From: Jimgerdemannia flammicorona
Lineage: Eukaryota
Reading direction: 5' to 3'
NCBI GenBank assembly: GCA_003990765.1
Contig: RBNJ01000050.1
Location: forward strand, 1-46,902
Length of the DNA: 46,902 nt
Both the position numbers and the translations under genes were made by a program. Position 1 is the first letter of the stretch, and every line of letters begins with the position of its first letter. Positions 277 through 45,574 of this stretch are shown here, one piece after another. Below the pieces are notes generated by a model. The model saw only the letters and a program-made list of their open reading frames with translations. It was not told where the DNA came from and made no database searches.

Positions 277-737
277 TGTGATGGTATAGCTAGATTTGGA
301 AGAAGGAAATAGAGAACAGATACTTAATTGTACCCAGTCCCAAAGTAGCCACATAGTTAGCAGTCCTCAATTTTGCCATTTGCTAAATATTTTGCAAAGT
401 GTAAGATTGAGCTTCTCAATATAGTATAGCATTTTGCAACTGGCAAAATATTTCGCAAAGTGTTAAATGACTCATAACTTAGCCACATAACTCAGTAACC
501 ATCTCATAGCTAGCAAACTTGTGTAAATAACCCAGTATCTTCAAGTGAATAAACCTCAGATCAAAATAGTTCAAAGCAAAGAGATAGCAAAGGAACTAGT
601 AAGCCTGTGGGCAGATATACTTTGAACTCACCCACCCTCCCCTGCAACTCAAAGGACTCTGAGGAGTCAGAGAAGATCAAGTTTTCAAGATACAGAAATC
701 TGACATACTTTTAAGAATAAGCATCTGCTACATTACA
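277..737 (+). repeat. E1 5' LTR
   Basis: Starts TGTGATGG, ends CATTACA; colinear without gaps with 6519-6979; TATA-like TGTAAATA and AATAAA near 522-553. Confidence 0.97.
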
Positions 738-8106: not shown

Positions 8107-9706
8107 TATTACATAGTGGTCACTAAGTTCTTCAAATATATCAGATTCTCTCCAAGGTATATCTCTTAGACTAACTACAAGTTTGTTATAAGCAAGTTCT
8201 TATTGGAGTACCTTCTCAAGGTATTATAGTCCTCAAACTTCTTATCTTTAAACTATCTTATTATCTCTTAGATTGCTTGTGTAGAATTGAGGGTAAGTAA
8301 ACTGGAACTAACTTTATTTTAAAGGAAATAAGAGGAATATTTATACAAAATATAATTCAGTAGTTGCTAAGTTATAAAGCTAAATATAAATTCCAATAAC
8401 CAAATAAAATACTGGAACACAGAAAACTATAGTTGTAAGTATAAGTTTAAGTATATATATAAGTAGTTGTACAAGTTCAAGATACCAGTAGAATTTCAGT
8501 AATACAAGAAAAGGATACCAGAAGAATTTCTGAGTTATGTAAGATCAGAATGCCAGAAGAATAACAGTTACACAGAAAAAGGATGCTAGTAGAATTCAGT
8601 ATCATCAAGAACTTAGAGCAGAAAGTTCAGAACTATAGTAGCTTTATCTTCATTACTATCATCTAGACTAAAGGTCAGAGACAGGATATCTTCAAAGAAG
8701 ATGAGATCTATGAATATTTTGTCCATTTGTATATATTGCACATTTCATGTGCTTTATATATATTGTATAGGATGACATCATGACCAATGATGTCATCACA
8801 TTTAGCAGTAGTGGGGGCTCTCCAATCTATGACATTCTCTTCTATAAAATAAGGAACAAATGTGAGGTCTTGGGGAGGTCTAACCTGGATACTGGAGCCT
8901 TGGAATACTGAGATCAATCCTTGCAGGAATTGATCAGGATTGTTCTCAAGAATAGGGTTCCAGAACTCTTTTACCTCATCACTATTGAGGGTGATAGTAG
9001 ACTGGACTTTTGTGGCCACTATAGCCTTCAGTGCATTGGTGTAGTAGGCTGATAGTTTCTTGAAGTCTGAGGTTCTAATATACTCTAAGTTGGAGATTGA
9101 CCATGGTATATGTCTGAAGACCTGATGAATCTTTTTAGCTATCTTTATTTTACATATATCTATAGAGATGACATCTTGTATTTCTTAGTAACTGGCCTGA
9201 GAGAATTCCCAGCAGAGGAGGTTTCTTATTTCATACTTCTGCCATATCCAGAGGTATTCAGTAGTGATAGTGATCCTTATTTCCATTTTACAGCAGCAGA
9301 AGATATAATGATAAGGGTCACCAGTACCTAGGTTAAGACTAGGAGTTCTTTTTATGTGAGTTCTCAGGGCTCTTCTGATGTCTTGAAACATTCTTTCCTG
9401 GACTGAGAGGTCTTGGTGATTCCTGGACCTTGAGGTTTGGTGAGCAGCAGACATTTTGTATGTGGTAAGTCTTTTGAACTATTTTTGTGAGCTTTGTTTG
9501 GATTGCTGTGACTGCAGTTTCTTGATCCTTCTTTTATATTCCTCAAGATGTTGGTCTTGTAGTTACAATAACTCACAGTTGTTCATTATTGCTCATCTTG
9601 TAGCCTGGGTGAGTCATGCTATATGATCTTCTTGTGCTCCAATCTAGTGACTTGTAAGGAAAGGCTGTCTCCTATACTAATGTCATCATTTTGAATTACT
9701 GTTATA
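8107..9706 (-). repeat. E2 3' LTR (1600 bp)
   Basis: Colinear with 15208-16807 at an offset of about 7101; abuts the PPT. Confidence 0.95.
8613..9454 (-). pseudogene. LTR(U3)-encoded ORF of E2, 3' LTR copy (~280 aa consensus)
   Basis: Track ORFs 9185-9454 and 8708-9019 are one frame linked through a CAA>TAA stop. A 1-nt deletion near 8730 separates the acidic tail ending VLNFLL*. Confidence 0.8.
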
Positions 9707-10020
9707 TCTTCCTCCTGAATAAGGATCTTCTATTGATTATTTTTATTCATTGGTCCAGTTTGAAAAATTTGCTGATCTTATAACCTCTGATAGGGGATCG
9801 AAAAGTGGTATTTATGGACTGATATCTTTCCTATATATTTTTGCATAATGGTGAAGGATCACTCTCTTCATATAGAGCAAGGGCCTGATTCTGATTTTGA
9901 CTAATCAGTTGATGGTTCAAACTCCTCTAGCTTTAAAAGTTTCATAAATAAGTAGTTGCTGGTACCATATTCCTTAAAGAATGGTCCAGACAGATTGCCT
10001 GCTGGTCATGAGACATGCTG

Positions 10021-11261
10021 TTATGATTTGCAGACTAGAACCTCACAGGTAGTTATCACATTTTGCTTCTCTTATATAGATTCATGGTATCTCTTGAGTC
10101 TGTTCCTATGTATCATGGTAGGCAGTATGGTCTCTGAGAGTTTTCTAAGCCAAAAGGTAGTTCTCTTGATATTTTGTATATAGAAGAGTTCTTCTCATTT
10201 GGACTTCAGTTTTTATGACCATGAGGCTTCTACTATATTTTGATATAGTAGGACCTTTTCTCTGATTCAGATGGGTTCTAGAGTCTTGTGATTCTTTTCT
10301 ACATTCTTCTTTATCAGTGCTTATAACTTGATAATGTAATCTTCCTGATTTGGTGTAGTCTCTGGATTTCTGAGTCAATCTGTCTCCAAGTTAGATCTAG
10401 ATTTATGGCTGAGATTCCATCAGAATCTTCTTCTCTGAAGAGCAGTTCTTTTGGGGTAAAGTGTGTACTCTATGACTATATATCTTATAAGATAGAGAGG
10501 GCAGTTGGGAGGTAGTTATTCCAATTGTTATATGTGTCTGAGATCTTTACCAGAATGTTCTTGAGGATCTTATTGGTTCTTTCTATCTGTCTATTTCCTT
10601 GAGAGTGGTATGCAGTGGTCTTGATATGCTGAATCTTATATTTTGGATATATTATCTTATGAAATTCATGGACAAATTCTGTGCCATGGTCTGTAGTGAT
10701 TTGCCTTGATATCTTATAGTGGCTGATAATTTCTCAGTATAGGAAGTCAGCTATAGAGGGAGTATTAGCTTCTTGTAATGCTCCTGCTTCTATCCATTTG
10801 GTAAAGAGGTCTACAATAACTATAATATAGTAGTTTCCTAATAGTGTCACTGATAGTAGTCCAATGATATGTATCTATTACAATATAGTGGAAGAGAATA
10901 GGCACAATTCTTGATGACCCAGGTGCCTGGTCTTGCTGATCTTGTTTCTGTTTTTGGCACTTGTCACACTCTTTGACAAATTTGTATAGAACCTCTTCTA
11001 TCTTAGGCCACTATATGGTTCTTCTTGCCTTATCATATATGTTGGTTCTTCCTAAGTATCCTTGTTTGTATACTTTCTTCATTACTTGATACTTCTTGTA
11101 TTTGGATATTACAAGCTTTCCTCTTTTTCTGAGTGTGGTGTTGTCTAGTTCAAATTATTTCCAAGTCTAGTTGATAATAGTAATAGTCCAAGGTTTGAGG
11201 TGGTTAGGCATCTTTTGCTGCTGAGATAGCTAATTAATCCATAGTATAGCTCCTTATTCAT
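10021..11261 (-). pseudogene. E2 integrase in a separate frame
   Basis: Reverse complement starts MNKELYYG; CDKCQK, DLFTKWIEAG, TDHGTEF and TTAYHSQGN motifs. Confidence 0.9.
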
Positions 11262-11286
11262 ATTGAATAGTCTTGATGAGAATGTT

Positions 11287-14200
11287 TCAGGGTATCCTTG
11301 AGAGTGTATCAGCATTGGCATTATTCTTCCTGAGCAGTACTTGACAGTACAGTCATACTCTTATAGTCTGTAGATCTATCTAGCATATATTCCTTTAGAG
11401 TTCAGAGTGTGGAATAGCTAGACAAGAGCAGAATGGTCTGTTTGAATAGTGAAGTATTTCCCAGCTAGATAGTAGTGGAACTTGTCTACTACCCAAACTA
11501 TTGCTAAGTACTTAAGCTTATATGACTTATAGTTCTGTTCTACTCCACAGACACCTCAGCTTATATAGGAGATGACATATTCATATCTATCTTTCTTCTG
11601 AGCTAGGACTGCTCCAAGTTCTATAGTACTTGCATCTGTCTGCATAACGAACTCTAGGTTCCAATCTGGTCTTCTGAGGATGGGTACTTGGGTCAATCTA
11701 GTCTTGAGTTCATTGAAGGTTTCTTGGCATTTCTTGGTCTATTCAAATTTGGTCTTTCTTCGGTAGCTTGTAGATAGGGGCTGCAATATTGGAGTATCCT
11801 TTGATGAATCTTCTGTAGTAGGAGGCCTGTTCAAGGAAGACATGGACTTCTGTAGTTGTTTTGGATCTTGGGTAGGCTGCAATAGTCTCAATATTCATAG
11901 AGTCTGTGTAAATTCCTGTCTGGTTGATGATATGTCCTAGGTAGGCAATTTCCTGAGCTGCAAACTTACATTTCTTAGGCTTGATATAGAGGCCATACTT
12001 CTTGAGCTTCTTGAGAGCTAGCTGTATATGATTGATATATTCCTGTATACTGTTGCTGAAGATGATTATATCATCAATATAGATAAAGAGCTATTTTCTA
12101 ATCTTATTACTGAAGACTCTATTTATCATTTGCTGAAAACTTGCTGAGGTATTGTATATTCCAAATGGCATTTTCAAGTAGACATAGGTAGCATCAGGTA
12201 TGATGAAGGCTGATTTCTCACTGGCATCTTAAGTGAGACTAATCTGATGGAAGCCTGAGAACAGATCCAAGGTAGTATAGTATTTGGCTTTGCTTCCAAG
12301 GGTAGTAAGGATTTCTTGAATATTTGGCAAGGGCTGCCTATCCTTTCTGGTAATTGTATTGAGCTTTCTGTAATCAATACAGAGTCTTGGGGCAAACTCT
12401 CCAGGCTTGCTTTCTTTCTTTGGGGTGAGAACAATAAGTGAAGCCCAGGGGCTGATAGCTTGCTTAATGATTTCAGCTTTTTCCATTTCCTTGAGTTCTG
12501 CTCACAGTCATTCTCTATAGGCAGGTGGTATAGGTCTGGCTTTCTGGTAGATAGGCTTGGTATCACCAGTGTCAACTTCATGATAGTACTTGGATTCTTG
12601 ATTGTAGATATTTCTAAAGTCTGTAGTAAGTACTCTTTTATTCTGGTGCAGGATCTTGAGAAGTTGTTCTTTTAGGGGAAAGTTTTCTCCAATGGTATAT
12701 ATGTGCTTATTCTAGTACTTATCTTTCTTATACTCAAGTTCAGTAATCTTAGTAATAGTATAGGCTCCTTTTCCAGTAGATCCAAAGTCTTATTCTTCTC
12801 TCTTAGTCTTGATAAGTTTGATGACTTCAGTAATCTTAGACTTCTTGACTTTGTAGATCAGTATCTGGTCAATCCTGTCATACTTCTTGACTTTGAATGG
12901 AGTGGTGGGGTTGTGATTCCTGACTATGAGGAAGATCTTACCAGTGTAATCAGGGTCAATTACTCCTCCTTTAACTGATATTTTGCTTTTGGCCAGACTG
13001 CTCCTGGTCTTGATAATTCTGGTATGGTTCTCTGGCAACTTGACTCCAATTCCAGTATCAAGTAGAGTGGTTGTCTGTAGTTCAAGAATAGCATCTTGAA
13101 TACTGACAAGGTCTATTCCTATGGCTCCTTCAGTCTTATATTCTGGAATCTTGGCTTTGGGGTGAAACTTCTTAATCTTAAGAGTGATGTCTAGTTCTTG
13201 TTCCTCCATGTCATCACTGTCAGCTTGAAGCTCTGGGGGCTGGTCATCTTCTTCAGCTTTCTTTTTTACTTCAGCAGCTTCTTGTTCATGCTTTTGTTGG
13301 TGGATTTTCCCTACTTTACTGATACAGGATCAGTAGTTATTCAGGTATTTAGAGCAGTATATCCTGGTACCATGGGGGAATCTTTCTTAAGGGACATAGT
13401 TATCAATGATCTTATTGTACTACTGCTTATCTGTGAGCTTGGCTGTCTTGCTCTTGTTCTTATATACCAAGTATATAAAGACTTCTGTATTCTCTTTATC
13501 TCCTTCCACTATGTCTGATAGTACTCCTTTATAGACATGGATAGAGACTTGTACCTTTCTTTCTTTATAGTTGATCTGCATCTTCTGGATATTGAGGTTA
13601 ATGACAGCCTAGGTCTTGTGAAGCAATTGGTTGCCAATGAGGATATCATAGTTGGTAGTACTAATAACAATTACATCTACTGAGATAGTAGCCCCTCTAA
13701 TTTTGATGGGGACTTCTTGGTTCTTGCCCTAGAGGATAGCTCAGATACCATCTGCTGTAATATAGATCATCTTGGTGGATTATTCAATATCTCAGCCTAG
13801 ACAGTCAATTGCCTTCTTGCTCATATGGTATTCTTCAGCATCAGTATCAATGATAGCATTAAAGATACAATCTTCAATCTGATATAGAGTATAGGCTGAT
13901 GTCTTGTGCTGGTCTTCAGATCCTTTATCTGAGTCTTCTTAATAATCTTCTTGTATATTGTGAGCTTCTATGATCTTGTACTCTTGGTTCTTAATAGTGG
14001 TTACAAGTCCTACTCTCAACTACTATCTGAAGGCAGAAACTTCAGCTAGTTGTCCAAAAGTAGCATTGACCTTCCATTTCTTACAGTCCTTATAGATATC
14101 ATACTGGTGGATCTTAGTCTTGTACAGCTTCTGTTCTTTCTTGCTTTCTCTTTCTCCTGAGACTAGAGTAGTGTCTTTAATAATTTGATAGGCAGCTTCA

Positions 14201-15082
14201 TCTAAATCTATATCTTAATCAATCTCCTCAGATTGGGTCTTACTTTCAATAGTAATAGCTGGGGTCTTCTTTGGTCTTCCAACTGGCTTACTGTTGCCCT
14301 TCTTGTCATAGGGCTTGGATCAGGTTCTGGTACCTTCAGTAACAGGGTAGAATTTAGACTCCTTATAGTATTCTTCATCATCAGTATCACTAATCTCCTT
14401 GATGACTACTGCATTGGTTTGTTCTCTGGTTCTGATAGCATTGCTTGGTTGGACTTTACATCTTGTTTTGGTCATGCAACTCTTTGCATAGTGGTCTTCT
14501 TCTCTACATCTGAAGTATGTAATATTGCATTCTTCTGTAGCAGCTGCAAATCTCTATACTGGTCTCCTGTTAGTGCTTTGGACTTCTCTAACAACATCAT
14601 CAAGATGTGTAGTCATCTTGACAAACTGCTTGGCAAGTTCCTCCACTGGGTCAGGACCAGATTGCTAGGGAAATTTCAGAATAAACTCCTTTGAGAAAGG
14701 TTGAATCAGCTATTTGTTCCTTGAGACAGTTATCATAGCTAGCTAAGACAATCTGGTAGCAGATTCAGATATGGAATGAGTTGGGATCTTTACTGAATCT
14801 CTGGCAGATAGTGTTGAGTTGATTCTTGAGAGCTTGCTTAATCTCTTCAGTATTGTATATAGTTCTGAAGAAGGTCTTTATATTGGCAAGTTTGGCTGCA
14901 CCAGCATCAGTAATAGTGGCTACATTGAACTTATCTCTGACAGGTCCTCTGAGGCTAACTGATAGAAGGGCCAATTGTGCATCCACATTAAGGGCTCATA
15001 TAGTAGCAAATTGTTCAAAGTCTTCAATGAAGGTCAGAATTGACTCTTTAATAATATATTGATAGAATGTAGGGGAATACAT
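11287..15082 (-). pseudogene. gag-pol: E2 gag-protease-dUTPase-RT-RNase H (decayed, some indels)
   Basis: Homologous to E1: EEIKQALKNQLN, AIIDTDAE, dUTPase (~12770-13190: GAIGIDL, TRSSLA, GGVIDPDYTGKI, DFGSTG), PRLCIDYRKLN, DLFSGFHQI, YIDD; ends ADTLSRIP*. Confidence 0.9.
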
Positions 15083-15186
15083 TTCCTTCTTGTCTTGAAT
15101 TCTTGCAGGGTGACTCTTGTAGTCAGGGTAGTTATTGTAGTGGTTGTTCATTTTCCAGCTTGAAAGTGAGGGATTCATCTTGAATC

Positions 15187-15204
15187 ACCAGCCAATGGGC
15201 ACCA
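15187..15204 (-). promoter_or_regulatory. E2 primer-binding site
   Basis: Reverse complement TGGTGCCCATTGGCTGGT, 3 nt from the 5' LTR, identical to E1. Confidence 0.85.
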
Positions 15205-15207
15205 AGT

Positions 15208-16807
15208 TGTCACATAGTAGTCGCTGAGTCCTTCAAATATGTCAGATTCTCTCCAAGATATATTTCTTAGACTAACTACAAGTTTGTTATAAACAAGTTC
15301 TTATTAGAGTGCCTTCTTAAGGTCTTATAGTCCTCAAAATTCTTATCTTTAAACTGTCTTATTATCTCTTAGATTGCTTGCATAGAATTGAGAATAAGTA
15401 TACTGGAACTGACTTTATTTCAAAGAAAATAAGAGGGGTATTTATATAAAATATAATTCAATAGTTGCTAAGTTATAAAGCTAAATATAAATTCTAATAA
15501 CCAAATGAAATACTGAAATACAGAAAACTATAGTTGTAAGTATAAGTTCAAGTATCTGTTCAAGTAGTTACATAAGTTCAGGATGCCAGTAGAATTTTAG
15601 TAATATAGGAAAAGGATATCAGAAGAATTTCTGAGTTATATAAGATTAGAATGTCAGAAGAATAATAGTTATATATAAAAAGAATACTGGTAGAATTCAG
15701 TGTCACCAAGAACTTAGAGCAGAAAGTTCAGAACCACAGAGGCTTTATCTTCATCACTATCATCAAGGCTAGAGGTCAGAAACAGAATGTTTTTGAAGGA
15801 GATGAGGTCTGTAAATGTTTTGTCCATTTCACATATATTGTGTATTTTATATGCTTCATGCATGTCACATGGGATGACATCATCAGTGATGATATCATCA
15901 CATTCAGCAGTGGCAGAGGCTCTCTAATCTATGATATTCTTTTTACAAAATAAGGAACAAATGTGAGGTCTTAGGGAGGTCTAACCTGAATGCTGAAGCT
16001 TAGAATGCTGAGATTAATTCTTGCAGGAATTGATCAGAATTATCCTTAAAGATAGAGTTCCAGAACTCTCCTATCTTATCACTATTGAGGGTAATAGTAG
16101 ACTAGGCTTCTGTGGCCACCATAGCCTCCAGTGCATTAGTATGGTAGGCTGATAGTTCCTTGAAGTCTGAGGTTCTAGTGTACTCCAAGTTGGGGATCAA
16201 TCATGGTACATGTCTGAAGACCTGATGAATCTTCTTGGCTATTCTTATTTCATATACATCTATGGAAATAGAATCTTGTATTTCTTAGTGACTGGTCTGA
16301 GGGAATTTCCAGCAGAGGAGGTTTCCTATTTCATACTCCTACTATATCCAGAGACATTCAGTAGTGATAGTGATCTTTGTTTCTATTTCACAGCAGCAGA
16401 GGATATAATGATAATAGTTACCAGTATTCAGGATAAGGCTAGGAGTCCTTCTTGTATAGGTTCTCATAGCTCTTCTGATATCTTAGAATATCCTTTCCTG
16501 GACTGAGGGGCCTTGGTGATTCCTAAACCTTGAGATTTGGTGAGCAGTAGGCATTTTGTTTATGGTAAGTCTTTTGAACTATTTCTGTGAGCTTTTTTTG
16601 GATTGCTGCTACTATAGTTTCTTGATCCTTCTTTTATATTCCTTGAGATATCTGTCTTATAGTTACAATAACTCACAGTTGGTCATTATTACTTATCTTA
16701 TAGTCTGAGTGAGTCATGCTGTATGATCTTTTTATACACTGATCTGGTGGCTTGTAAGAAAAGGCTGTCTCTTGTACTAATGTCATCTTTCTGAGATCAC
16801 TATTACA
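15208..16807 (-). repeat. E2 5' LTR (1600 bp)
   Basis: On the element strand TGTAATA...TGTGACA; followed by the PBS. Confidence 0.95.
15714..16554 (-). pseudogene. LTR(U3)-encoded ORF of E2, 5' LTR copy
   Basis: Paralog of 8613-9454 with two 1-nt deletions near 15940-16000; intact acidic C-terminus DDSDEDKASVVLNFLL*. Confidence 0.8.
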
Positions 16808-20570: not shown

Positions 20571-20772
20571 ATATATATATCTTCTATATATAATCATTAA
20601 TAAATATGATGAAATATCTCTTTCTACAATAGGAAAAAGTAAACATTGGGCTATATATATCTATGTTGATAACTGAAAATATACTTTAAATATATAATAA
20701 AATATTTTATTCTTTATACAATCCTCACAGAAACTATTATACAGATGTATATATACTAGTAATATACCCCTA

Positions 20773-24553: not shown

Positions 24554-24599
24554 AGAATGTGCTTGATATTATACATTATTTCTTATGAACAGTACAACC

Positions 24600-29569: not shown

Positions 29570-32500
29570 TTCTTACTTGCCATCACTCTCTGCTGAAGTA
29601 CAACTCAACTACTCACTATCTGAACCCTCTTACCACTCTTCTTGCAAATATAATTCACCAGATTCTGATGGCCACCCCCACCTAGACCTCATCCTCTCTA
29701 CCAACCATTCAAAATGTCAAGTAATAACTATTCCCAACATGCTATCCTAGCTCCAAATGCCACCCACTGGCCCTTCTCAAAGATATGAAGTCAATGACTG
29801 GCCATCTCTACTCAAATTGTCAGGGCCCATCTTAAGGTCAACCATTCATCTCCCACTCTATCCACTAACCTTCACCAGAGGTCTCCCCATCTCCCTTCTT
29901 CCCCTTCCATCAGAGGCCTCAATCCCAATCTACTAGAAATACTGTGCCAAAACTCTCCCAAAACTTCACACTCTTCTAGCCAATGTTTAGGTGTTTGTAC
30001 CACTCCTCCCTCCTGACCAATGTCTATATATTCCTCACACTCAAATGTACTGTCCACCACCAAGTACCTAGACTGATAGTTCAGCATCACATTCTGTCTC
30101 AAGAACCTCTATCAGATCACTCAGAACTTAGGGGGAAGCTATTGTCTCACCTACTTACTTCAAGGCCAAATACCATTCCAGTCCTACTCCTTACCAATTC
30201 CCACTCTCTGCCATGCTTCAGGCCACATGTCCCCCCCAAGCCCCCAGCTGAAAGTCCTCCACCAATGTACCTTCCAGCAGTAGTCAGTTCTATCTCCACA
30301 TCTATGATCCCCAGTCCTCCACCCCCTCATCACTCCTCTACTGAAGTCCAATCCTTCTTACACTATTCACTACTCCCCATCAAAAACCTTTATAATATAT
30401 CCTCCTGCTCTCATCCATGGCCACTATTATAAGCAGATCACCAGTTGCTCCACAAGGGGAATACTGGACTTCCCACACCCTCTGCATAAGTGGCACCCAT
30501 TCTCAGCCTCACAACTCACTCACTCTCTTCAGCCACCATGCTTGCAGACAATATAAGAGCTTAGCAAAGTCCACTAAGCCCAACTCACCCCTGTCAACAG
30601 GTAAATTCAGAACCTTCCAGCCTATCTGACTTTACTGCCCAGCCCAAATCTATGATCTTGCTATCTTTAGAAGTCACCTGACCACCTACACCAAGAAGTC
30701 TAGATGATACCCTACATACTATAGCTTTGGCATCTAATACACATTCAGTATCATCACTCTTTCTACCAAGGATATATGCTGACCACCCCATCTCAAGAGA
30801 ACATTCCCACATATTAGTAGCTGCTGTTCCCACCATACACATGGCAGAAGGGACCCATATACTGAAAAGTATATTCCCAAGTACCATATCAGTTCTTCTG
30901 CTAGAACTACTGTCCCAATCATATTGTCATCAACTATTCTGCTGTCTAGCACCAGAGTCTCACATTTGTATCAGTTGAGTCAAGCACCAGAGCCTCTCTC
31001 ATACCACTTCACAGTTCACCTTAATTCTTTTATATCTACTAACCACCATATCATCTACAAAAGCCCCAACCTTCCAGTTAATCTCTAAAATGTCCAAACC
31101 TCCAATTTGATGCTAAATCCTATCCAATAAGGGCTCTAAAAAAAGGGCATATAGAATGGGTGACAAGGGATCCCCTTGTAGCACTCCATGATCTAGCAAA
31201 AAAGTTACACCTCTGTATTCATTCATCACTAATACTGCTTGACTGTCCTCCAATAAACTGATTAATGACTACCTGAATGCTGGGGGAACCCCCACACATT
31301 TCAGTACTCTCTCCAGCCAGATCCTCCTCACCCTGTCATATGCCTTCTCTTGATCTAGAAATACTAACCAGCCATCTACCCCAGCTGTCTGAGCCCCCTC
31401 TATCACCCCATAAATCCAAACAGTACTATCTCAGATCAACTGACCACCAACAAATCCCCTCTGCTCTACTTCTAGCATCTGCTGAGCAATCTCCTACAGC
31501 CTAGTCACTAAGATCTTTGTCACCAGCTTGCAGTCCATGTCAAGGAGCATGATCAGCCACCAGTTCCTCCAATCTTCCCTTCTCTCCTTATCCTTATAGA
31601 GCAAGGAGACCAGCCCTAGGCACTGGCCCCCAATCCAAGTTCCAGACTGAAGGACCTCACCACTTATCACTATTATCTCCTCCAATACTACCTCTACTCC
31701 AGCCATCTTATTCCAAAAATCCCCGAGAAGCCCATCCTCTCCTGAAGCTATCCTATTGCTTGTTGAAGCCAAGACCTTGCATACTTCCTCCCTCTGCACC
31801 AGATCTCTCAGTGTCCCTAGACCCAGTGCTGGGTCTGAATACCAATCCTCCAACTGCTGTTCAATGTTCAGAGCATCCTCACCCCCTTCTTCTTCACTCT
31901 ATAAATTCTCCCAGTGAGTCCTCAGCAATCTCAGAATCTTAGAAGTCCCTGCCATCATCTCTCCATCCTCATCCAAAATACCATTCTACTGCTGTCTAGT
32001 TCTCTGAGCTTGGAGCAACCATGAAAGAAACCTAGTAGACCTCTCTCCCTCCTCCAACCCCTGCCACTGCAACCTTGCCACCATTCCCTTCGGCTGAACT
32101 TCTTTCTCCATTTATAGCACTTCCTTTAACTCATCTACTTTCTTTTGTATCTGCAGAGTTCACCAATCAGCCACCCCCCAATCCTCTAGTGATCCCACAC
32201 ACCTTCCCAAAAGTGCCACCAATCTCTGTGAAGCCTATTTCACTTGCTGCTACTACTGAGCACTCTTTCCTTTCCTGGCCTCTCTTTAGTACCTCTGAGC
32301 ACTCAACTTCAGCTACTGCCAGTGATCCCCAATCTTCAATCCCTGCTCTCACTATCTATTAATCTTCTCAATAGCTTCCACCTCCTAGTCTGTCTATAAG
32401 GAACCATCTTCTAACAAAGAAGAATTCAGTTACCAATGCCCAGACCCATCCTCACTTCTCTCAAATCTTCCACACCCTATCAGACCCCAGTGATCTGACC

Positions 32501-33150
32501 ATGGACACCAAACCACCTCCAGCATATCCCAGACATCTTCTCCCCAGTACTCTGCTATCAATACTCAGTCAATTCTAGAGTCCAGCCCTGTCACCCAGTG
32601 GGTATAAATTCGGCAATCCTCCCAAAACTATCACCTCAAGTCAATCAAGGAGCTCAACCTCTCAATCTCTATCCAATCATTCAACTCTCTACTTCTATCT
32701 CTCATTCCTCTCCTGCCATCAGTTTTGTCTATTCCATTATTATATACTATGTTGAAATCTCCCCTCAGGCAATCAATCCCTATCTCACCCATAACACTAG
32801 TCTCTCTCAGATCTCTGACCCAATCCATGTATTCCCCCCTCTCTGCCAGGCAATAATATGACCCAACAGTCAAAGAGTTCCACCCAGATCTCTTCTATAC
32901 TCCCCACACCAATCTACTCTCCCAATGTCCAATGTCCCCAATATCTCTCATCTCCTTTTGAACCAGAATGCTCACTTGCCCAGTCTACACAGCTGCCCCA
33001 CCCCATTCTCTAGTCCAGTCCAGTAAGTCTCTGTCTACCTCATACTGTATATCCTGCAGTAAGAAGAGATCTGCATCCAGTCCCCTCAGCCAGCCAAAGA
33101 TATTCCTTTGCTGTACTGCTCCCCTCAACCCATTCACATTCAAAGAAAAG
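29570..33150 (-). pseudogene. LINE-2 ORF2: APE and RT
   Basis: TFSLNVNGLRG..DADLFLLQD, RGDFNI, PWSDHWG, ASGEDGL, GVLQGDPLSPILY, AFVDDM, FECEE..QTPKHWLEEC. Confidence 0.92.
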
Positions 33151-33243
33151 GTTCTAGTTATACTTTTTATATTGAAAAATGTTTGATATTGAGAGCCCAG
33201 TCTAGAATTTCATACTCATCTCATCCCCAGTCAGATCTAAATA

Positions 33244-35052
33244 TCACTCTGCCTCCAAAACATCCTCTGCTACAGTCTGAGTATCCAGTGCTTCCAAGAT
33301 TTCCTGACACTCCACCCCATCCACAACCTCTATTTCTGCCTGATAATCTGTATATACCACTCTCCACTTCTCCAACCTCTTTCTTGAGCCCCACAAGTAT
33401 GCCACCCAGTCATTCACAATCCCCTGAAGGACCTCCTCTCTCTTATCATTAACTTGATATTTCTCTAACTCCAAGAGCACCATCAGAATTTCATTCCTAA
33501 TCTTCCTTGGCACTTCTTCTCCATGAAGAATTTTCTCTCAATGCCAATCACTTAGTACCTGGAAGTCCTCTCCTCCAAGCTCCTCAGCTACCACCCCCTC
33601 CAGAGTCTTCCACAGTCACTTCTCTTCATTCACCACCTCAGCAACACCCTGGGCAACTCCCTCAACTTCCACCACAGGGTCCACTAAAATACTTCTCCTT
33701 CCTGACTCATCTCACTCCTCTTCCAGTATATCCAATAGTTCCTCCTCCCCCTCTGTCCTACTTAGGACACCATACTGAGGGTGAACTTCCTCTCTCATTT
33801 TAGCATCCTCCACTATACTGCCTAGTCCTTCCTTGCTTGATCCATCCAGTGCTCTCTAGCTCAGGTACTCTCCCTCAGTCCAGTACTACCTTCTCCCACC
33901 CCATCATTGGCCACCCCCTCTTCTATCTTCACCAACAACTTCTTCTGGATTCGCCTCCCCTGCATCTTCTCTCAGGTCCCCTTGTCTATCCTGATCCTTT
34001 TTCCATCTACAATCTCCACCACTGTCTTGGCCTCATACTCCTTCCAAGCCAGTCTTCTCCTCTCAAACACTCCTACCAGATCCTCCAGAGCCTCCAGCAA
34101 GTCCTCCTCTTTCTCTGGCATCTCTTTCACCCATGAGACCTTGTACTCAACTGGTCCTACTTAAGAGTAGCAGACTAGTCTCTCATCTTCCCCATGTTCT
34201 CTCTTCCAGCCAGCCTCACCCTGATATCAACATCTTCTGTCCTGAGTTCAGTACCCTCCCAGACTCAGAATTCAATATCTATGATCTCCCTAACCACCTC
34301 CATGATCAGCTCTCTGGCCCTCTCTTTTGACACTATAGAAAGATCCAATACTGTCAACTACACTACTTGAGGGTTCCAGCATATACACCTGGTCATAGAA
34401 ACCACCACTCTATCCACCACTACCCTCTTCTCTACAGTCTCCAATAATGATGCCTCTTTCTCAAATCCAATCTCAACCCCTTCTTTCCCCTTCAAGAACT
34501 TCACTGAAGCCACCTCCTTCACCTCCTATACCATCAACTCCAAAATCATACTCACAGTCACCACCAAGCCTTGGAAGCACAAAGTGATGGCAAATTCTGA
34601 CCTTGACTTTTTGAGTAACAGAGCTGACACCATACCAGTCACACCATCTGCCAGGTCCCCAGACCTCATGCTCTCCCCCTGCCCTAATCTGCCAACAACT
34701 ATTACATCTGGATTTTTTTCCAGATTCTCTTTTTTTTTTTTTTTTTTTTTTTTATAGTCTCTTGGACTTCTTTTTCCAGATTCCCAGTTACAGCTCCATC
34801 AGCAGTCACATCTCCAGCCCCTACTCTCCCCTCCCCCCTACTGCCCAGCCCTCCTATAGGGGCCCCTCCCTATCTCTTAACTGCAGCTGTTGATGCCTTT
34901 TCTAGTTCCAACCAGTTGTCCAGACCAGATGCTATTCTCTCCATCTTGACCTTATTAGCAAAGGTCATTCTTCTCCCTCCCTGTTGCCTCAATTCACCTC
35001 TCTCTCTACCACTAATGCCACAATCACCCACAGAAGGTTCTGGCATCCCCAA
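33244..35052 (-). pseudogene. LINE-2 ORF1 (decayed, interrupted by a micro-insertion)
   Basis: Homologous to LINE-1 ORF1 (TFANKVK..IASGLDNWL versus SFTDMIK..LTSGLESWL). Confidence 0.7.
34730..34770 (-). mobile_element. Micro LINE insertion (17 nt plus A24)
   Basis: Reverse complement GAAGTCCAAGAGACTAT(A)24 equals the LINE terminal motif; exact 13-bp TSD TTTTTCCAGATTC at 34715-34727 and 34771-34783. Confidence 0.92.
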
Positions 35053-35364
35053 ACCATCTCCTCATCTCCTCCCAAAATGCTGCCAGTCAAAAGTACCACT
35101 GTCCCCCTGGCTGACATGCTCACCAGTACAGTTATTGCTGTCTATATTGATAGTCTCCTTTCACCAAAAATGTTGCAGAAAGTGTTATCTGAGTCTTGTG
35201 TCACCTGAATGTTACCAGTAAAAGGTACTGAAACTATATTTTCTATAGTAATACTTATACTAGTTATAATGAAAACTATTTCTACTATTATCAGAATATT
35301 TATAATTAGTATATCTGTATTACTAGACTGATTTCAGCTCATTGTAAAGTTTTCTTATAGTATA

Positions 35365-36860
35365 TATTAGGATAACAACTCAATATATCAATATATAATT
35401 ACACCATTTTATTAGATTTATATTATTCATTAGTAACATATAAATATATGACTTCAAAAACTTCAAAAATAGCTCTCTCTCTTTTTACAATAAAGATTAT
35501 GAGTTCTGCTAGTACTAAGTGACTATAGTAAATTAATATATCTCTTTGAAATATACTATACTAAAATGTCAGATGACTAGTCTAGTAATATAAGTATAGA
35601 AATAGATATACCAATTATGAAAATTCTTTAGATATAACTACAATAACTATAGATATGAAAAACACAGTTCTGGATGTAGGTATAAATATAGCCAAGAGGT
35701 CTATTCTGATCTTTGACAGGAAAGATTATATAATCTAGGTATTCTATAAGATGAATCTCCTTAATAAATATAGCTTAGCAGAGTATATGAGACCACCAGT
35801 GTTGATTTAAGATTACAATGCTACAAATGACTGTCAAGTATTATATGAGATTATATTCATATTATCAAACTTCTAAATGAAGCTTATAATATATATAATA
35901 AATATTTATGAGATATGGGAGACTTTATATAATCATTTCATGTAAATATCTATGTCAAATTAATTTCATCTAAATCTCAATTATTTAATCTATAAATAAA
36001 GCTAAAGAAGACTATTTGCAAATATGCTAGTTGTATCAATGATCTGATAAATCAGGTGAATTTCCTAAGTATGTCAGCATAGTATATAAGTAATAAAGAT
36101 AAGGTCTTAGCACTTATAAGAAACTTTTCTGAAGCATATTATATCATAGTAGCAACTATGCAGAAAAGTGACAAGCTCACTAATTATGCTCATATCATCA
36201 TAAGTCTCATAAATGAGGAAATATATCAAAGAAATAGTACTATTAATAATGATGAAAATACCTTCTATGGGACCTATGAATGTAGTAACAGTACTAAATA
36301 AGATCAAAAGTGTAGACAATAATAAGGTCAATAAACTCAAACCCAAGCTTAATAATATTATAACAACTAATTCAGTCAATCAACTGAGTATGATAGTTAT
36401 TGTGAATACTGTAACAAGTATAGATATAGGAAGTATAATTATTATTATTAAGAAAATAACAAGAAGAGTAGTAAAAATAATAAGCAATAATATAAAGACC
36501 AGTGTAGGTAATATAGAGGTAGCAGAAAGATCTATCAAGGTAAAGAAAAGCATAATAATACAAATACTACCAAAACTGATAAAAGCAGTAGTATATTCTT
36601 TATATAAGTATTATATATTGATCACAGTTCCACTCTCAAATCCACTAACTCATCATCTATATCAATAAATTCCAGTCAATAGCAAAAAACTTTTCACTTG
36701 ACAAAAAGTAGTAATGATGTAAGCACTATTAGTAATAAATATGCTATAAATATAGCTAAAGATAATGATGTCTGGCAAATGGATTCCAAAGTTATATAAT
36801 ATATAACACCACATTGAGAATAGTTTTCTATATATGAACATTTTAAATACTTTGTATCTA
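35365..36860 (+). mobile_element. Copia-C: LTR, PBS, gag, start of protease (truncated)
   Basis: LTR start TATTAGGATAACAACTC (as at 41304); PBS-like GATTATGAGTTCTGC at 35495-35509; gag paralogous to 41400-42700; protease VWQMDSK. Confidence 0.8.
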
Positions 36861-38630: not shown

Positions 38631-38944
38631 ACAGCATGTCTCATGACTAGCAGGTTATCTGTCTGGACCATTCTCTAAGGGATACAGCACCAGCAACTAC
38701 TCATCCATGAGACTTTCAAAGCCAGAGAAGTTTGAACCATCAACTGATTAGTCAAGATCAGAATCAGGCCCTTGCTCAATATGAAGGGAGCAACCCTTCA
38801 CTATTATGCCAAAATACAAAGAGAAGACACCAGTCCATAAACACTACTTTTTGACCCCTTGCCAGAGGTTATGAGATCAGCAAATTTTTCAGAACTAGAC
38901 CAATGAATAAGGATACTCAAGAAGATTCTTATTCAGGAGGAAGA

Positions 38945-40394
38945 TGTAAAGGTGACCCCAGAATGATGACATCAGCATAGGAGACAGTCTTTCCTTACAA
39001 GTCACCAGATCAGAGCACAAGAAGATTATACAGCATATGAGATAAGTGATAATGACCAACTGTGAGTCATTACAACCATAGTTCAGATATCTTGAGGAAT
39101 ATAAAAGAAGGATCAAGAAACCACAGTAGTAGCAACCAATAAGACCCACCAATCCCAAAATAGCTCAAAGACTTACCATAAACAAAATGCCTGCTACTTG
39201 CCAAACCTTAAGGTCAAGAAATCACCAAGGTATCTCAGTTGAAGAGAGGATGTTCTAAGACATCAGAAGAGCTATGAGGACCTGCTCAAGAAGGACTCTG
39301 AGTATCAACCTGGGTACCAGTGACCCTTATCACTATATCCTCTACTACTATGAAATGGAAACAAGGATCACCATTGCTACTGAATGCCTCCAAATGTGGC
39401 AGAAGTACAAAATAGAAAACCTCCTCTGCTAGGAGTTCTCACAGACCAGCCCTCAAGAGCTATAAGATGCCACTTCCATAGATATATACAAAACAAGAAC
39501 AGCTAAGAAGATCTATCATATCTTTATGTATGCACCATGGTCAATTCCCAACTTGGAGTATGTTAGAGTCTCAGATTTTAGAGACCTATCATCCTACTGT
39601 ATCAATACACTAGAAGCCAGGGTGGCTACAGAAGTCCAGTCCACTATCACCCTCAATAGTGATGAAGTAGAAGACTTCTGGCATCCTATCCTTCAGGACA
39701 ACCTAGAGCAATTCCTGTAAGGATTGATCTCAGTATTCTAAGGCCCAAGCATCCAGATTAGACCTCCCTAAGATCCCACATTTATTCCCTATTTTGTGGA
39801 AGAGAACCTCATAGACTGGAGAGCTCCAGACCTCCTTCCCACTGTTGAATGTGATATATATAAGATGCATGACCTATATGATGACAACAATGATGACAAT
39901 GAATTCATAGACCTCATCTCCTTTGAAGACATCCTGACCTCTGATGATGAAGCCCCCATGGTCCTGAACATTCTGCTCTAAGTCTCTTGGTTATACTGAA
40001 TAATGCCAGCACTGGTATTCTGATGTGACACCAAATTATACCATCATCCTGAATCTATACAACCATCAGTGTCAACCCTGGAACTTAACAGTTTTTTCTG
40101 TCCCGACATTTTATTTTAGTTATTGGAATTTATATTTAGCTTTATATCTTAGCAACTATTGAATTATATTTTATATAAATACCCCTCTTATTTCCTCTGA
40201 AATAAAGTCAGTTCTTCTCAGTATAATATATACACTTCCTTGCAAACAATCTAAGAGATAACAAGATAGTTCAAAAGATAAGAAGTTTGAGGACTATAAG
40301 ACTTTGGGAAGGCACTCCAATAAGAACTTACTTATAACAAACTTGAGTTAATCTAAGAGATATACCTTGAGGACTTAGTGACTACTATGTGACA
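38945..40394 (+). repeat. E3 3' LTR (1450 bp)
   Basis: Homologous to the E2 LTRs; TATATAAATA near 40172 and AATAAA near 40201. Confidence 0.92.
39187..39981 (+). pseudogene. LTR(U3)-encoded ORF of E3 (264 aa, no indels)
   Basis: One frame MPATCQTLRSRNHQ...PMVLNILL*; the internal stops are TAA/TAG at positions where E2 has Q or W. Confidence 0.85.
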
Positions 40395-40405: not shown

Positions 40406-41303
40406 TATTAAAATTTCTATTATTTTGATATCTTTTTAATATGATTTATATATATATAACTATATTATTTTTGAGTTACATTATTTGATATATAAAATAT
40501 ACTATCTGAAATAATAAACAATACTTTACTCTCTATCTCTTTCTCTAGATCTACTCTATATTTATAACAAAAGTTATGAGCCCTGCTTAGTAGCTAATAA
40601 GAAATATCTCTTTAAGACTCTATATCAAGATATCAATATAGACAAACTAAGGGATCAGTATCAGTATAAGTATACTGAACACAGTAGGTACAAATACTCT
40701 CAGAATTAGTATAATAGTCACAGTTTTTATGGTAAATATAAATATAGCCAAGAGGTTAATTCTTATCTTTAATAGCAAGGATGATGCTATTTGGATATTC
40801 TATATGAAAAATCTTCTGAAAGAATGTAGTTTGGCAGAGTATACAAAACTACAGATACAGATTCAAGATTATAATATTATAAATAATTACTAAGTATTAT
40901 AAGAGATTATGTTCATATTATCAAACTAGCCAATGAAGCTCATAATATATACTATAATAGTTTATAATATATGAAAAACTCTATATAATTATCATATATA
41001 AGTATCCTTATCAAATTGATTCTATCTGAAATCTCAGCTATTTTATCTATAAATAAAACTCAAGAAGAGTATCTATAAATATACCAATTATATAGATAAT
41101 CTGATAAATCAGATAATTTCTCTAAGCATATCAGCAGAGACATCAGTGATGAAGACAAGATTCTGGTCCTTATATAAGACCTTTCTGAGGTATATAATAT
41201 TATTATAGTAGCTATATATAAGAGTGAGAAACTTATAGACTATATTTATATAATAATAAGTCTTATCAATAAAGAGATATATCAAGAAAATAGTGGTAAT
41301 AAT
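40406..41303 (+). mobile_element. Copia-D: LTR, half-tRNA-iMet PBS, gag (truncated by Copia-E)
   Basis: LTR at about 40406-40569 ends TTTATAACA; PBS AGTTATGAGCCCTGC at 40572-40586; gag paralogous to Copia-C and Copia-E. Confidence 0.8.
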
Positions 41304-43286
41304 TATTAAGATAGCAACTCAATATATCAGTATATAACCTTATACCATACTATCTAATTTATATCATTCATCATTAAAGCATAAAATATACTAATACTAG
41401 AAATGTGTAATAATCAGCCTAGCAATATGAGTATAGAAACAGATATACTAATTACAAGCATTTTTCTCACAGGTATATCCTCAATAAGTATGGGAAACAT
41501 AGTTCTGATTGTTGGTATAAATATAGCCAAGAGGTCCATTATGATCTTTGATGGAAAGAATTATGCTATTTGGGTATTTTATATAATGAATCTCTTTGAT
41601 GAATATAGCTTGGCAGAGTATATGAAGCCATAAGCACTAATTCAAGATTATGATACTATAAATAATTACTGAGCATTATATGAGATTGTATTCATATTGT
41701 CAAATTCTCAAACAAAGCTCATAATATATATTACAATAACTTATAAGGTATGGGAAGTTCTATGTAATTATTATATGCAAGCATCTATATTGAATTGATT
41801 CCACTTGAAATCTCAGCTATTTAATCTTCAAATGAAGTCTAAGAAGAGTATCCATGAATATATCAGTCATGTTAACAATCTGATAAATCAAGTAAATTCT
41901 CTTAGCATATCTACAGATTGTATTAGAAATGAAAACAAGGTTATAGTACTTATAAGAAGACTTTGGGATATATATAATGTTATAGTAGCAGCTATGTATA
42001 AGAGCAGTAGACTCTCAGATTACATCCATGTGATAATAAGCCTCATAAATGAGAAAATATACTAAGAAAATAGTGCTGATAATAATAAAAACACCTTCTA
42101 TAGGTTTCATGGATGTAGTACCAAATAAGGTCAAAAGTGTAAGCAATAAAACCAAAGGGAATAAATCCAAACCCAAGTACAATAATGCAATAATCAGTCT
42201 ACCAATTAATCAAACAAGTGTGATAGTTACTATGAATACTGTAGCAAGTATGGATATAGGAAGTACTACTATTATTATTGAGAAAATAACAAGAAGAGTA
42301 GTGAGAATAAGTATGGTAAAAGTCAGCACAGAAACTATCAAGACAAATGGAAGTATGGTAATATAAATACTATTGAAACTGATGAAAGAGGTAATCTATT
42401 TTTTATACAAGCTATCAGTAATACCAGTTCTGCCAGTACAAGATCTACTACCAAATCCACTAATCTGTTATCTATGAATTCTAGTCAATAGCAAAAGTAA
42501 AATACTTTTCATCCAATAAAAAGTAGTAATAACATCAGTATACTCAGAAGTATGGGAATTGCCAACAACTATATATTCTCCAAGTATATATCTGATAAAT
42601 ATATTACCAATATAGTCAATAATAATAATATCTGGCTAATAAATTCTGGAGTCATATAATATATAATACTATACAGGGAATAGTTCTCTATATATGAGCC
42701 TTTTGAATACTCTATATCTATCAAATTAGGAGATAATAATATTATCTATATTCAAGAAAAAGAAAATATAGAGATATATCTCTAGGATAATATTATAGAA
42801 TCTACTGGCACATTTCAAGATATACTATATACTCTAGAGTTCAGCAAGATTATCTTTTTAATAAGAAAGATAATATCTCATAGTAATAAATAAATACAGT
42901 ATTGAGATACTTACTGACCTATAGGTGTAATAGAGCAATATCTTCAAATACTAGTATATGTTAATATATAGAGCACAGCTTTCATTCTTCTTAAGGAGAT
43001 TGCCAACTATCTCTCTTTCTTAATAATATATAATAAAGAAATATATATATATATAAAGAATACTATAATATATGATTTGTATGATAATGAGCTAATAATA
43101 GCTTCAAAATGTGAGAATATTTATATGATCAATAGCATATCAAATAGAAATGGTATGAAAGTCTCCACTTATACAATAACTATATCTGATACATCTAATA
43201 TATAGCATCAATGCTTAGGACATATCAGTAGAATGAGCCTTGAACATATAATAAGAAGTAGCTCAGTAAGTAGATTACTAATATAT
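41304..43286 (+). mobile_element. Copia-E: partial LTR, gag, protease, pre-integrase
   Basis: IFDGKNYAIW (copia gag N-terminus), LKSQLFNLQM, WLINSGV protease, (W)HQCLGHIS at about 43203-43230. Confidence 0.82.
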
Positions 43287-43459: not shown

Positions 43460-44010
43460 GGGCTCAGGATGTCGGTGATGAGGTCATTTGGTTGTTCAAT
43501 GGCTCAGGACGTCAATGATGAGGTCGTTCAGTTGTTCAATGGCTCAGGACGTCGATGGCTCAATTGTTTAGTGGAAAAGGGCGGCGATTATGCTGGCTAA
43601 GTTTCCTGGTGGCGATTAACTTGGTGGCAAACTCAGCGATGACGGTTTTGGCTTTAAGCGGTTTGTGGCGCAGTAGGTTGGGAAAAATGGAGGTTGACAG
43701 CTCACTCGTCCATCTTGTTTAGCTTGAAAGGGCGGGGTAACTTGGGTCTTTGGCGGTCATTTGAGTATCTCAGCGGATCTTAGGCTGTGGTCTTGTTTGG
43801 CTGGGTATCCTTGGGTTCCTTGGTTTTCTGGGTCTTGAATCTCGAATGGCGGTCGAATGCGCAGAGGTCTGAATGGCAGTCTGAATGCACGGAGGTCCGA
43901 ATGCGCGGCAGTCATGTCTTGAATCCTTGGCTGGGTAACTTGGGTTTCTGGGTCTTGAATCCTTGGCTGGGTAACTTGAGTTCCTTGGGTTCTTTAATCC
44001 TTGGCTGGGT
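43460..44010. repeat. Short tandem and direct repeats in E4 U5
   Basis: GTTGTTCAATGGCTCAGGACGTC x2-3, CTGGGTAACTTGGG..CTGGGTCTTGAATCCTTGG x2-3, GAATGGCGGTCGAATGCGC-type x2-3. Confidence 0.8.
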
Positions 44011-44340
44011 CTCGGGTCTCAAATGGCAGTCGAATGGTGGTGGTCGGGTAACGTTTTCTTTCCGTGGCAAGAGAAAATTCTTTAACTCAAACTTCTGAGC
44101 GATCCATTGCTCTAGGTTGTTATCTTGTTCTCAGAATTTATCTGGTCTCTTGGAGGCAGTGGTTATTTCTCAAAACCAATTGACTGAGGTTTATTCACTC
44201 TAAGAATATGGGTTATTTATACAAGTTTGCTAGCTATGGGGGAGGGGGTGCGACTAAGGCTAAGGTATACTATGTTGTGGCGAACTTATGCTATTGGTTT
44301 GCACGATGCAAGGTGCAGGCTATTGTTTACTATGGATTGG

Positions 44341-44587: not shown

Positions 44588-45574
44588 CTAGAGGAAATAG
44601 TACCCTTCATCTATAGCGGGCAAATCTTGCTGGGTTGTGATTTCTTCTTCATCATATCTCTCCTCAAAGGGGGGGAGCACCAGCCAAGAGGTGAGGGGGT
44701 AGAAAAGTGGCCAGTCATCTTCAACAACATTCTCCAACCCTTGAACAGCTTGAATGTGAACAGAGGACTGGTAGACTCTCTGTTGCTCCTCTTCTTCTTC
44801 TGAAGGCTCATCAGTTTCAGTGTCAGAGGGGGTTTCTTCAGGGGCAGGGTCTTGGAGTTCTTGGGCCTCCTCTTCAAAGACAGGAACTTCTTGGGCTTCT
44901 TCTTGATTTGGTTCCCAAATGATGAGGTGTGAATTGTGGCTGACAGGGTGGTGGGTGGTTGGGGTAGTTCCCACAGGTGCCTCTATAGTGATGGGCAGTC
45001 CTTCAAATATCTCCATAAGACTCATTAGGTGACCTTGATGGTTGTCTCGGAGTGGGGTGGTGTGGAAACCTGGCTGAGTAGGTTCGGTTTGTTGGTTTCC
45101 TATGGTGATGCAGTTGCTGCCAATAGCATTGGCTACTTCAGATTCTATCCAGTCAGCATCTTCAGTTGAAAGGTGGGAGAGGCTGCCAGCTGTTACTCCT
45201 TGTAAGTGTACTATAGTCTAGGGAATATGGCAGAAGATTTGATGGACACGGAGGGCTCTCTTGATTAGCTGGCTGGTGGTTAACATTTCGGCAATGAGGT
45301 CTTCCTGGTCGCCTTCTTGAGTCTCATTGCGAAGGCGGTGTCTGATTTCATAGTCATGCCAGAGAGTCATTCGTTCGGTAGTGTCTTTGAGCTGTTGGGT
45401 CATTATATACCAGTAGTTGATAAAGTGTCCAAGGTCCTCAGTGTAGAAGTTCAAGTGTTCGGAGGTATCTGGGCACCAGATAGCCTTCTTGATAGCTTCA
45501 AAGATCAGGGTCTTTGGGCCAGGCAAAGGGGTAGAGCGGTGGGAGGTCTGGTTGGTTCAGCAAATGGGAGGCAT
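44588..45574 (-). pseudogene. LTR(U3)-encoded ORF of E4 (328 codons, two transition stops)
   Basis: MPPIC(R)TNQ... Track ORFs 45218-45526 and 44588-45025 are the same frame. Homologous to the E2/E3 LTR ORF, with a long acidic tail. Confidence 0.85.

Follow-up and report, generated by a model that had tools for sequence, protein, structure and literature searches.

A protein-coding frame inside the long terminal repeats of Ty3/gypsy elements of Jimgerdemannia flammicorona, a candidate accessory gene

The 46,902-nt stretch of Jimgerdemannia flammicorona DNA analysed here (contig RBNJ01000050.1 of assembly GCA_003990765.1, positions 1 to 46,902; the whole stretch is called the window below) is a nest of decayed retroelements, among which four related Ty3/gypsy elements, E1, E2, E3 and E4, are relevant to this report. 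An original prediction, made from the DNA letters alone, had placed a protein-coding gene within U3 (the unique 3' region) of the long terminal repeats (LTRs) of E2 and E3. The open reading frame (ORF) in question was found in E2, E3 and E4; all 4/4 window copies lie on the sense strand and are LTR-borne, the LTR of E4 being a presumed one. Judged from its sequences, the ORF is a genuine protein-coding accessory gene, long retained in a clade of dUTPase-bearing gypsy elements. Coordinates are collected in Table 1.

The limits of the LTRs were taken from a three-way alignment of the E3 LTR and both E2 LTRs. The E2-3' and E3 repeats open with TGTAA right after the polypurine tract (PPT) AGGAGGAAGA, their 3' terminus reads ...TATGTGACA, and the E2 LTRs run from TGTAA to GTGACA, that is, with the TG...CA ends of terminal repeats. 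The primer-binding site (PBS) TTGGTGCCCATTGG is located 2 nt past the LTR in both E1 and E2, the tract AGGAGGAAG(A) is common to the 3' LTR junctions of E1, E2 and E3, and 4-bp target-site duplications were found for E2 (CTAT) and for E1 (ATAT). Element E1, whose PBS and leader are identical to those of E2 and which shares the PPT context, provides independent support for these boundaries; over their first 300 nt, its own two LTRs match at about 91%. The loose end of one soil-metagenome contig, a weak indication, falls exactly at 38945. The PPT and LTR start had been thought to lie just before the ATG of the ORF, which was wrong: they lie 242-252 nt upstream (38945 in E3, 9706 and 16807 in E2), so that the ORF is located deeper inside the LTR than first assumed. 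The boundaries do not exclude the ORF, which is wholly inside the LTR by the three-way alignment and the E2 repeats. Its predicted position between the PPT and the TATA box still holds with the PPT moved upstream and the TATA-like box of E3 at 40172-40181. For E4, the LTR start is presumed from likeness to E1, E2 and E3, the second E4 LTR being absent from the window.

The E3 frame had been described as 264 codons free of indels. Its length was upheld, and so was the absence of a frameshift, because the intact homologue P0003 aligned over residues 1-271 in a single frame (64% identity, E 1e-108, tblastn); the frame is not an intact ORF, as it contains six in-frame stops (five TAA and one TAG). 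The same frame was confirmed, though decayed, in both E2 LTRs (9454-8613 and 16554-15714, minus strand). Searching with intact relatives by tblastn also yielded the E4 copy, which is close to the database protein P0013 and shares 26% identity with P0004 (E 1e-15). No match was obtained in E1 by tblastn with five family proteins. C>T/G>A changes have turned the four window copies into pseudogenes. Such decay is general. Identity between the two E2 LTRs is 85.3% (1362/1596), the differences being 186 transitions, 15 transversions and 11 unpolarised sites; hardly any CpG is left.

In spite of its decay, the frame stands apart from the other five. Stops in the ORF frame number 6 in E3, 1 in the first 248 codons of the E2-3' copy and 2 in E4, against 7-27 in the other five frames and 14-15 expected from base composition. 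All of these stops (9/9) occur at sites where the intact relatives have Gln, Trp or Arg, and each is a single C>T or G>A change away from a codon for the relatives' residue. Indirect signs of selection were seen as well. Both indels that distinguish E2 and E3 within the ORF are 24 nt long, whereas in the rest of the LTR only 3/13 have a length divisible by 3. Transversions per site amount to 0.037-0.040 in the part encoding the N-terminal domain, 0.050-0.080 in flanking U3 and 0.14-0.15 in the part encoding the tail. The frame is open across lineages at 26-40% identity. Frame conservation in other copies, on which the original prediction had made itself dependent, was found in E2, E3 and the divergent E4, as well as in the intact database relatives.

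Outside the window, 19 database proteins related to the ORF were identified, forming three subfamilies. Five of them are full length (271, 324, 325, 331 and 342 amino acids) and begin at the same Met-Pro. The family was assembled from a word-indexed search (five proteins), an exhaustive profile search of 1.84 billion representative proteins (five credible ones, and no credible match outside this small family), a profile search of 90% clusters (two) and cluster look-ups (eight). One candidate, P0014 (E 7.6e-4), was a low-complexity repeat protein; it was regarded as spurious and removed from all alignments. ENA or JGI assemblies are the source of all 19 proteins, which are unnamed or annotated as "hypothetical protein", none having a functional name. 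No longer fused form was detected among 3388 longer candidates. To judge from these sequences, intact relatives of the gene are present in other assemblies, P0003, P0012 and P0016 being examples of natural intact proteins. Two scans of metagenome contigs (355 and 241 pattern stretches) and scans of viral contigs (34) and genome contigs (254) yielded none confirmed as DNA of an intact homologue.

The protein is predicted to consist of an all-helical N-terminal domain of about 215 conserved residues, followed by a small hairpin and by a disordered tail of 55-120 residues. The structure model on which this rests has a mean predicted local distance difference test score (pLDDT) of 48, with 60-82 across much of residues 11-160; an earlier AlphaFold model built from 7 close sequences (pLDDT 34) was unusable. 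The acidic and hydrophobic tail noted at the outset was borne out: its isoelectric point (pI) is about 4.05, with 17-28 acidic versus 3-6 basic residues, and it carries the motif DLIxF and a near-C-terminal P-x-x-V/I-L-N-F in subfamilies A and B, while in the subfamily of E4 (C) the acidic end is rich in Trp, Phe and Tyr. Neither a transmembrane segment nor a signal peptide was found in the eight intact database proteins, whose maximal Kyte-Doolittle 19-residue means are 0.59-1.25 and whose N-termini are polar or basic. Because hydrophobic segment and signal peptide are both missing, the protein is not an env, in agreement with the original prediction.

Searches for known families and folds came up empty. 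No Pfam family was matched at E <= 1 by P0001, P0002 or P0012, and over 22 family members only chance-level matches appeared (ATG5_HBR in 4/22, best E 0.028; Importin_rep in 1/22). Sequence and profile searches of the PDB were empty, and the ESM Atlas gave a best score of 0.88, to an unnamed cluster, and no usable named match. For the low-confidence model (pLDDT 48), VIA-align reached a Z of at most 4.5, and Foldseek found no match in BFVD at E <= 0.001. Comparison with the Gag of the element itself gave an hhalign probability of 0.07. The view that the protein belongs to no known family agrees with these results, and no clear match to a known transposable-element domain emerged from the profile, sequence or fold searches.

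Table 1. Positions in the window of the four Ty3/gypsy elements, their LTR landmarks and the copies of the LTR-borne ORF
Feature	Position	Strand	Description
ORF, E3 copy	39187..39981	+	264 codons + stop; 6 in-frame stops, no frameshift; pseudogene
ORF, E2 3' LTR copy	8613..9454	-	1 stop in first 248 codons; 1-nt deletion before tail
ORF, E2 5' LTR copy	15714..16554	-	most decayed: 7 stops ahead of first frameshift, at least 2 frameshifts
ORF, E4 copy	44588..45574	-	328 codons + stop; TGA at codon 6, TAG at conserved Trp
E1	LTRs 277-737 and 6519-6979	+	Ty3/gypsy, close relative of E2/E3
E1 5' LTR	277..737	+	461 nt; comparator without ORF; second LTR 6519-6979
E1 PPT	6509-6517	+	same tract as E2/E3, before E1 3' LTR
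E2	16807-8107	-	Ty3/gypsy, both LTRs present
E2 5' LTR	15208..16807	-	1600 nt; CTAT before; AC + PBS TTGGTGCCCATTGG (15205-15192) after
E2 internal region	9707..15207	-	gag (CCHC), protease, dUTPase, reverse transcriptase, RNase H, integrase
E2 3' LTR	8107..9706	-	1600 nt; PPT 9716-9707 before, CTAT after
E3	internal part from ~36.9 kb, LTR 38945-40394	+	5' end truncated
E3 PPT AGGAGGAAGA	38935..38944	+	abuts LTR start
E3 3' LTR	38945..40394	+	1450 nt, TGTAAAGG...TGTGACA
28-nt block	39094..39121	+	identical in three decayed LTR copies; holds TATAAAAG (39100-39107), 80 nt before ATG
E3 TATA-like box TATATAAATA and AATAAA	40172-40181; 40201-40206	+	presumed core promoter and poly(A) signal, ending U3
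E4	integrase 46.8-46.1 kb	-	extends past window end
E4 PPT-like tract AAGGAGCAGA	45783-45774	-	presumed LTR from 45773 (TGTGACG), 199 nt before ORF ATG
E4 TATA/AATAAA module	44180..44238	-	TATAAATA 44221-44214; AATAAA 44195-44190; ~365 nt past ORF stop

The carriers of the ORF were characterized by a Pfam scan of E2 in three frames, with stops read as X. The domains appeared in the order RVP_2, dUTPase, RVT_1, RT_RNaseH_2, Integrase_H2C2 and rve, which is the protease, reverse transcriptase (RT), RNase H and integrase order of Ty3/gypsy elements (Metaviridae); the dUTPase (12772-13158, minus strand, E 3.9e-23) lies between protease and RT, and no chromodomain was found in these three frames. 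Gypsy elements that carry a dUTPase are described for basidiomycetes, Tuber and bdelloid rotifers in two reports (PMC2864245, PMC5408684), the second of which also places it between protease and RT in bdelloid families that have an ORF3; such a location is reported for a few basidiomycete elements too.

The integrase of E4 is 38-42% identical to the integrases of E1, E2 and E3. At the DNA level, pol is 68-75% identical between E1 and E3 and 83-87% between E2 and E3. These identities yield the rough tree (E4,(E1,(E2,E3))). As read from the sequences, the gene is old in this clade and was either lost or replaced in the lineage of E1. Its long retention is argued from E4, which keeps the ORF at the same place with so distant an integrase. 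A deletion origin of the E1 LTR, from an E4- or E2-type LTR, was considered and ruled out: the alignment with E4 comprises only the 60-nt TATA module and there is none with E2.

In E3, AATAAA follows 29 nt after the start of TATATAAATA. The segment holding this TATA/AATAAA module is the best-conserved part of the E2 and E3 LTRs (86-89% identity, versus 61-82% in other LTR segments), and the modules of E1 and E4 are 88% identical over 60 nt, the sole LTR stretch that those two elements share. In E2, E3 and E4, about 200-250 nt separate the PPT and LTR start from the ORF, and another 190-365 nt separate the end of the ORF from the module; the layout of E4 is that of E2 and E3, namely PPT-like tract, LTR start, ORF and TATA module. 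This shared, best-conserved module downstream of the ORF is taken to provide the genomic RNA with its promoter and poly(A) site, so that the gene probably lies in U3. In that case the genomic RNA would carry the gene at its 3' end, and each LTR, solo LTRs included, would contain it. The upstream block with TATAAAAG could be the promoter of the ORF itself or, less likely, the genomic promoter. Element E4 has TATTTAAG about 65 nt ahead of its ATG. The consensus 5' splice-site motif GTGAGT was also observed between LTR start and ATG, at 39062-39067 (plus strand), and is kept in all three LTR copies.

Taken as a whole, these data are best explained by an LTR-resident accessory gene of a chromodomain-less, dUTPase-bearing gypsy clade whose product would act as a regulatory adaptor, a reading to which we assign a probability of roughly 0.45. 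The element would encode an adaptor acting in trans, whose helical N-terminal domain docks on the element or its chromatin and whose acidic disordered tail, through DLIxF and P-x-x-V/I-L-N-F, recruits host machinery. Transcription from the LTR would in this way be switched on or kept open, as by Tas of foamy viruses or other acidic activators. The protein could be made from a short mRNA that starts at a TATA box within the initial 200 nt of the LTR (in E2 and E3, TATAAAAG at -80) and ends at the LTR AATAAA, or alternatively from a spliced subgenomic RNA. Considered on its own, the adaptor or transactivator mechanism is a tentative proposal that may well prove wrong. For the functions suggested in the original prediction (a transactivator, an anti-silencing factor or an integration-targeting factor), which are hypothetical, the one supporting feature is the strongly acidic tail with its hydrophobic motifs. 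A bolder version is doubtful: each LTR would be a self-contained gene, with TATA box, ORF of 270-340 amino acids and poly(A) signal, for a factor that works in trans to activate or shield all members of the family, so that full-length elements and solo LTRs keep producing the factor and the ORF-less E1 free-rides on it.

Several observations weigh against the adaptor reading. The N-terminal domain is mildly acidic (pI 5.2-6.5) and not basic, and none of the Pfam, PDB, VIA-align and BFVD searches matched it to a DNA-binding or other known family or fold. The confidence of the structure model is low, and the DLIxF and LNF motifs are not common to the E4 subfamily. Element E1 does without the gene, which must therefore be dispensable in cis. 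The codon-position test in the window gave 10/4/10 transversions and 37/28/56 transitions at the three positions, a weak and only suggestive signal, because the roughly 15% of post-insertion transition decay swamps the divergence between lineages; the neutral control of this test, the LTR pair, was itself uneven (40/22/34).

A folded domain joined to a tail rich in short linear motifs would suit equally well a cofactor acting after transcription, such as an adaptor for RNA export or packaging, a particle-associated protein, or a factor for integration targeting whose tail motifs bind a host partner together with Gag or integrase. The non-basic N-terminal domain fits a protein-protein adaptor better than DNA binding, and the Leu/Ile/Phe-rich stretches of the tail could, on our reading, serve as motifs resembling export signals; but the protein shows no likeness to the Gag of its own element and no known fold, and we consider this function unlikely. 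It is improbable, too, that the ORF is a leader ORF rather than a U3 gene, which would be the case if the upstream TATAAAAG were the genomic promoter and the ORF lay in a very long R or U5 as the first cistron of the full-length RNA. The canonical TATAAAAG, which stands 80 nt ahead of the ATG of E2 and E3 within a 28-nt block of perfect conservation, and TATTTAAG at a similar place in E4, would agree with such an arrangement, and extra ORFs upstream are described in plant elements, for example ORF0 of Retrosat2 (PMC3485330). Against it stand the ORF-less E1, which retains only the downstream TATA/AATAAA module that it has in common with E4, and the conservation of that module's segment, the highest of the LTR. 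Moreover, an R of about 1.1 kb whose poly(A) signal is ignored at the 5' end would be unusual.

About as little probability is given to a passenger gene, captured once from the host or another mobile element and without a role in the life cycle of the element. An orphan without recognisable function, absent from the close relative E1 and with a fast-evolving tail (transversions 0.14-0.15 per site), is what such a gene might look like; yet place and orientation were kept in lineages whose integrases are about 40% identical, five full-length frames are independently open, the 1.84 billion representative proteins contain no match outside the family and no fused form was seen, and 4/4 window copies are LTR-borne. 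Hardly any credence is left for a C-terminal extension of Pol, with integrase reading into the LTR, or for a chance open frame. In E2, the frame past the SH3-like domain of integrase does run with few stops across the PPT, but it differs from the frame of the ORF; in both E2 copies a TAG precedes the ATG by 8 codons, with the same TAG letters in E3; in E4, about 525 nt separate the end of integrase from the ORF; and the full-length database proteins all begin at Met-Pro, none of the 3388 longer candidates being a fused form. A chance frame is excluded by the stop counts, compared with the other frames and with expectation, and by the existence of homologous proteins.

Retroviral genes inside the 3' LTR are known: sag of mouse mammary tumour virus (MMTV), and nef of the human and simian immunodeficiency viruses (HIV/SIV), which overlaps U3. 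Like these, the window ORF is a sense-strand gene located 3' of the PPT inside U3 (U3 being deduced here) and copied to both LTRs, and coding sequence in this position is likewise a feature of the foamy-virus genes bel/bet. The ORF family nevertheless has no sequence homology to sag, nef or bel/bet by Pfam and PDB searches. In contrast to sag and nef, the complete ORF including its ATG is contained in the LTR, the product has no transmembrane segment or signal anchor, and the carrier is an env-less Ty3/gypsy retrotransposon and not a retrovirus. Tas/Bel1 of foamy viruses is an acidic, intracellular transactivator of complex retroviruses, of about 300 amino acids, encoded at the 3' end and served by an internal promoter. 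The LTR ORF resembles it in size, in the predicted succession of folded domain and acidic tail with hydrophobic motifs, and in having a candidate promoter of its own; it differs in having no recognised DNA-binding domain, no basic N-terminal domain and no match by sequence or fold. With acidic-tail transactivators in general it shares a C-terminal region that is acidic and contains bulky hydrophobic residues, a comparison of possible working mode drawn from sequence.

Lineage-specific genes of unknown or non-canonical function are also met in other gag-pol elements, as in Juno, Vesta and TelKA of bdelloids, the env-like genes of plant Athila/Tat, ORF0 of Retrosat2 and Ogre, and brtn of Botrytis Boty. 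The product of an env-like ORF3 should have one or more transmembrane segments and a signal peptide, and that of the LTR ORF has neither. The brtn gene is reportedly antisense, going by the title of a study by Zhao et al. The LTR ORF is sense-strand and inside the LTR in 4/4 copies, and lies neither in the interval between 5' LTR and gag nor antisense, which distinguishes it from ORF0 and brtn; by Pfam, its protein is unrelated to the ORF3, ORF0 and brtn families. In the respective reports, ORF3 of bdelloid elements is downstream of pol (PMC5408684), ORF0 is upstream of gag-pol (PMC3485330), an "add. ORF" of unknown function is drawn in some fungal gypsy elements by Novikova et al. (PMC2864245), and brtn is called an "additional ORF" in BcGypsy1 (10.1101/2021.04.13.439636). 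Full-text searches of open-access papers turned up no description of a gypsy element with an ORF inside its LTR, and the LTR-resident gene family is apparently undescribed.

Extra genes in LTR retrotransposons are known, and a few complex retroviruses have genes inside U3; a protein gene that is complete, conserved and wholly within the LTR of an env-less Ty3/gypsy element has apparently not been described. An LTR, or a solo LTR, could then be a gene and not just a promoter. Pipelines that mask LTRs miss a gene in this position, and so far it has been recorded only by metagenome gene callers. The function of this orphan family is open to direct assay. The presence side by side of relatives with and without the ORF offers a natural system for studying whether retrotransposons evolve regulators that act in trans and are exploitable by relatives: E1 may be a free-rider on its ORF-bearing relatives or may be a sign that the gene is dispensable. 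Should the doubtful version in which each LTR is self-contained be true, the factor would amount to a "public good" of retrotransposons, encoded in the element part that is hard for a genome to delete, and to an independent, non-retroviral invention of a U3 regulator with an internal promoter.

The closest public sequence comes from soil metagenomes. In four soil-metagenome contig sets, many pieces are 85-99% alike over E3 and E4. The summed contig depth in X1 was 709-1123 for the LTR versus 401-497 for the internal part of E3, and 145-229 versus 59-70 for E4; contig depth is unable to rank the parts of a gene, and these values were not used as evidence. Several soil-metagenome contigs match the integrase side of E4 and diverge at 45860, just upstream of the presumed LTR, into A-rich sequence, which suggests E4 relatives with the same pol and another 3' end or LTR. 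The E4 LTR may have its 3' end around 43.9 kb or around 43.3 kb. Downstream of the E4 TATA module, tandem repeats were seen at 43461-43557 and 43843-44010, with a period of 40, 28 or 36 nt.

No Rfam family was matched in the window, which is made up of repeats only. Its part from 21000 to 35500 contains two elements resembling long interspersed nuclear elements (LINEs), with RT domains and in opposite orientation, on the plus strand at about 22-28 kb and on the minus strand at about 29-35 kb. Both show an extreme GC skew (+0.33 to +0.50 and -0.38 to -0.54), the sense strand being G-rich and C-poor in each, which may reflect either loss of C from one strand or an intrinsic bias. An AT-rich repeat family (22-30% GC, copies 70-82% alike) occurs at 20772-21220, 28218-29507, 35648-36860 and 40704-42874; it flanks the LINE-like elements and E3, and two tandem copies are found at 40704 and 41483. 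The window itself starts, at positions 1-42, with a run of about 40 A.

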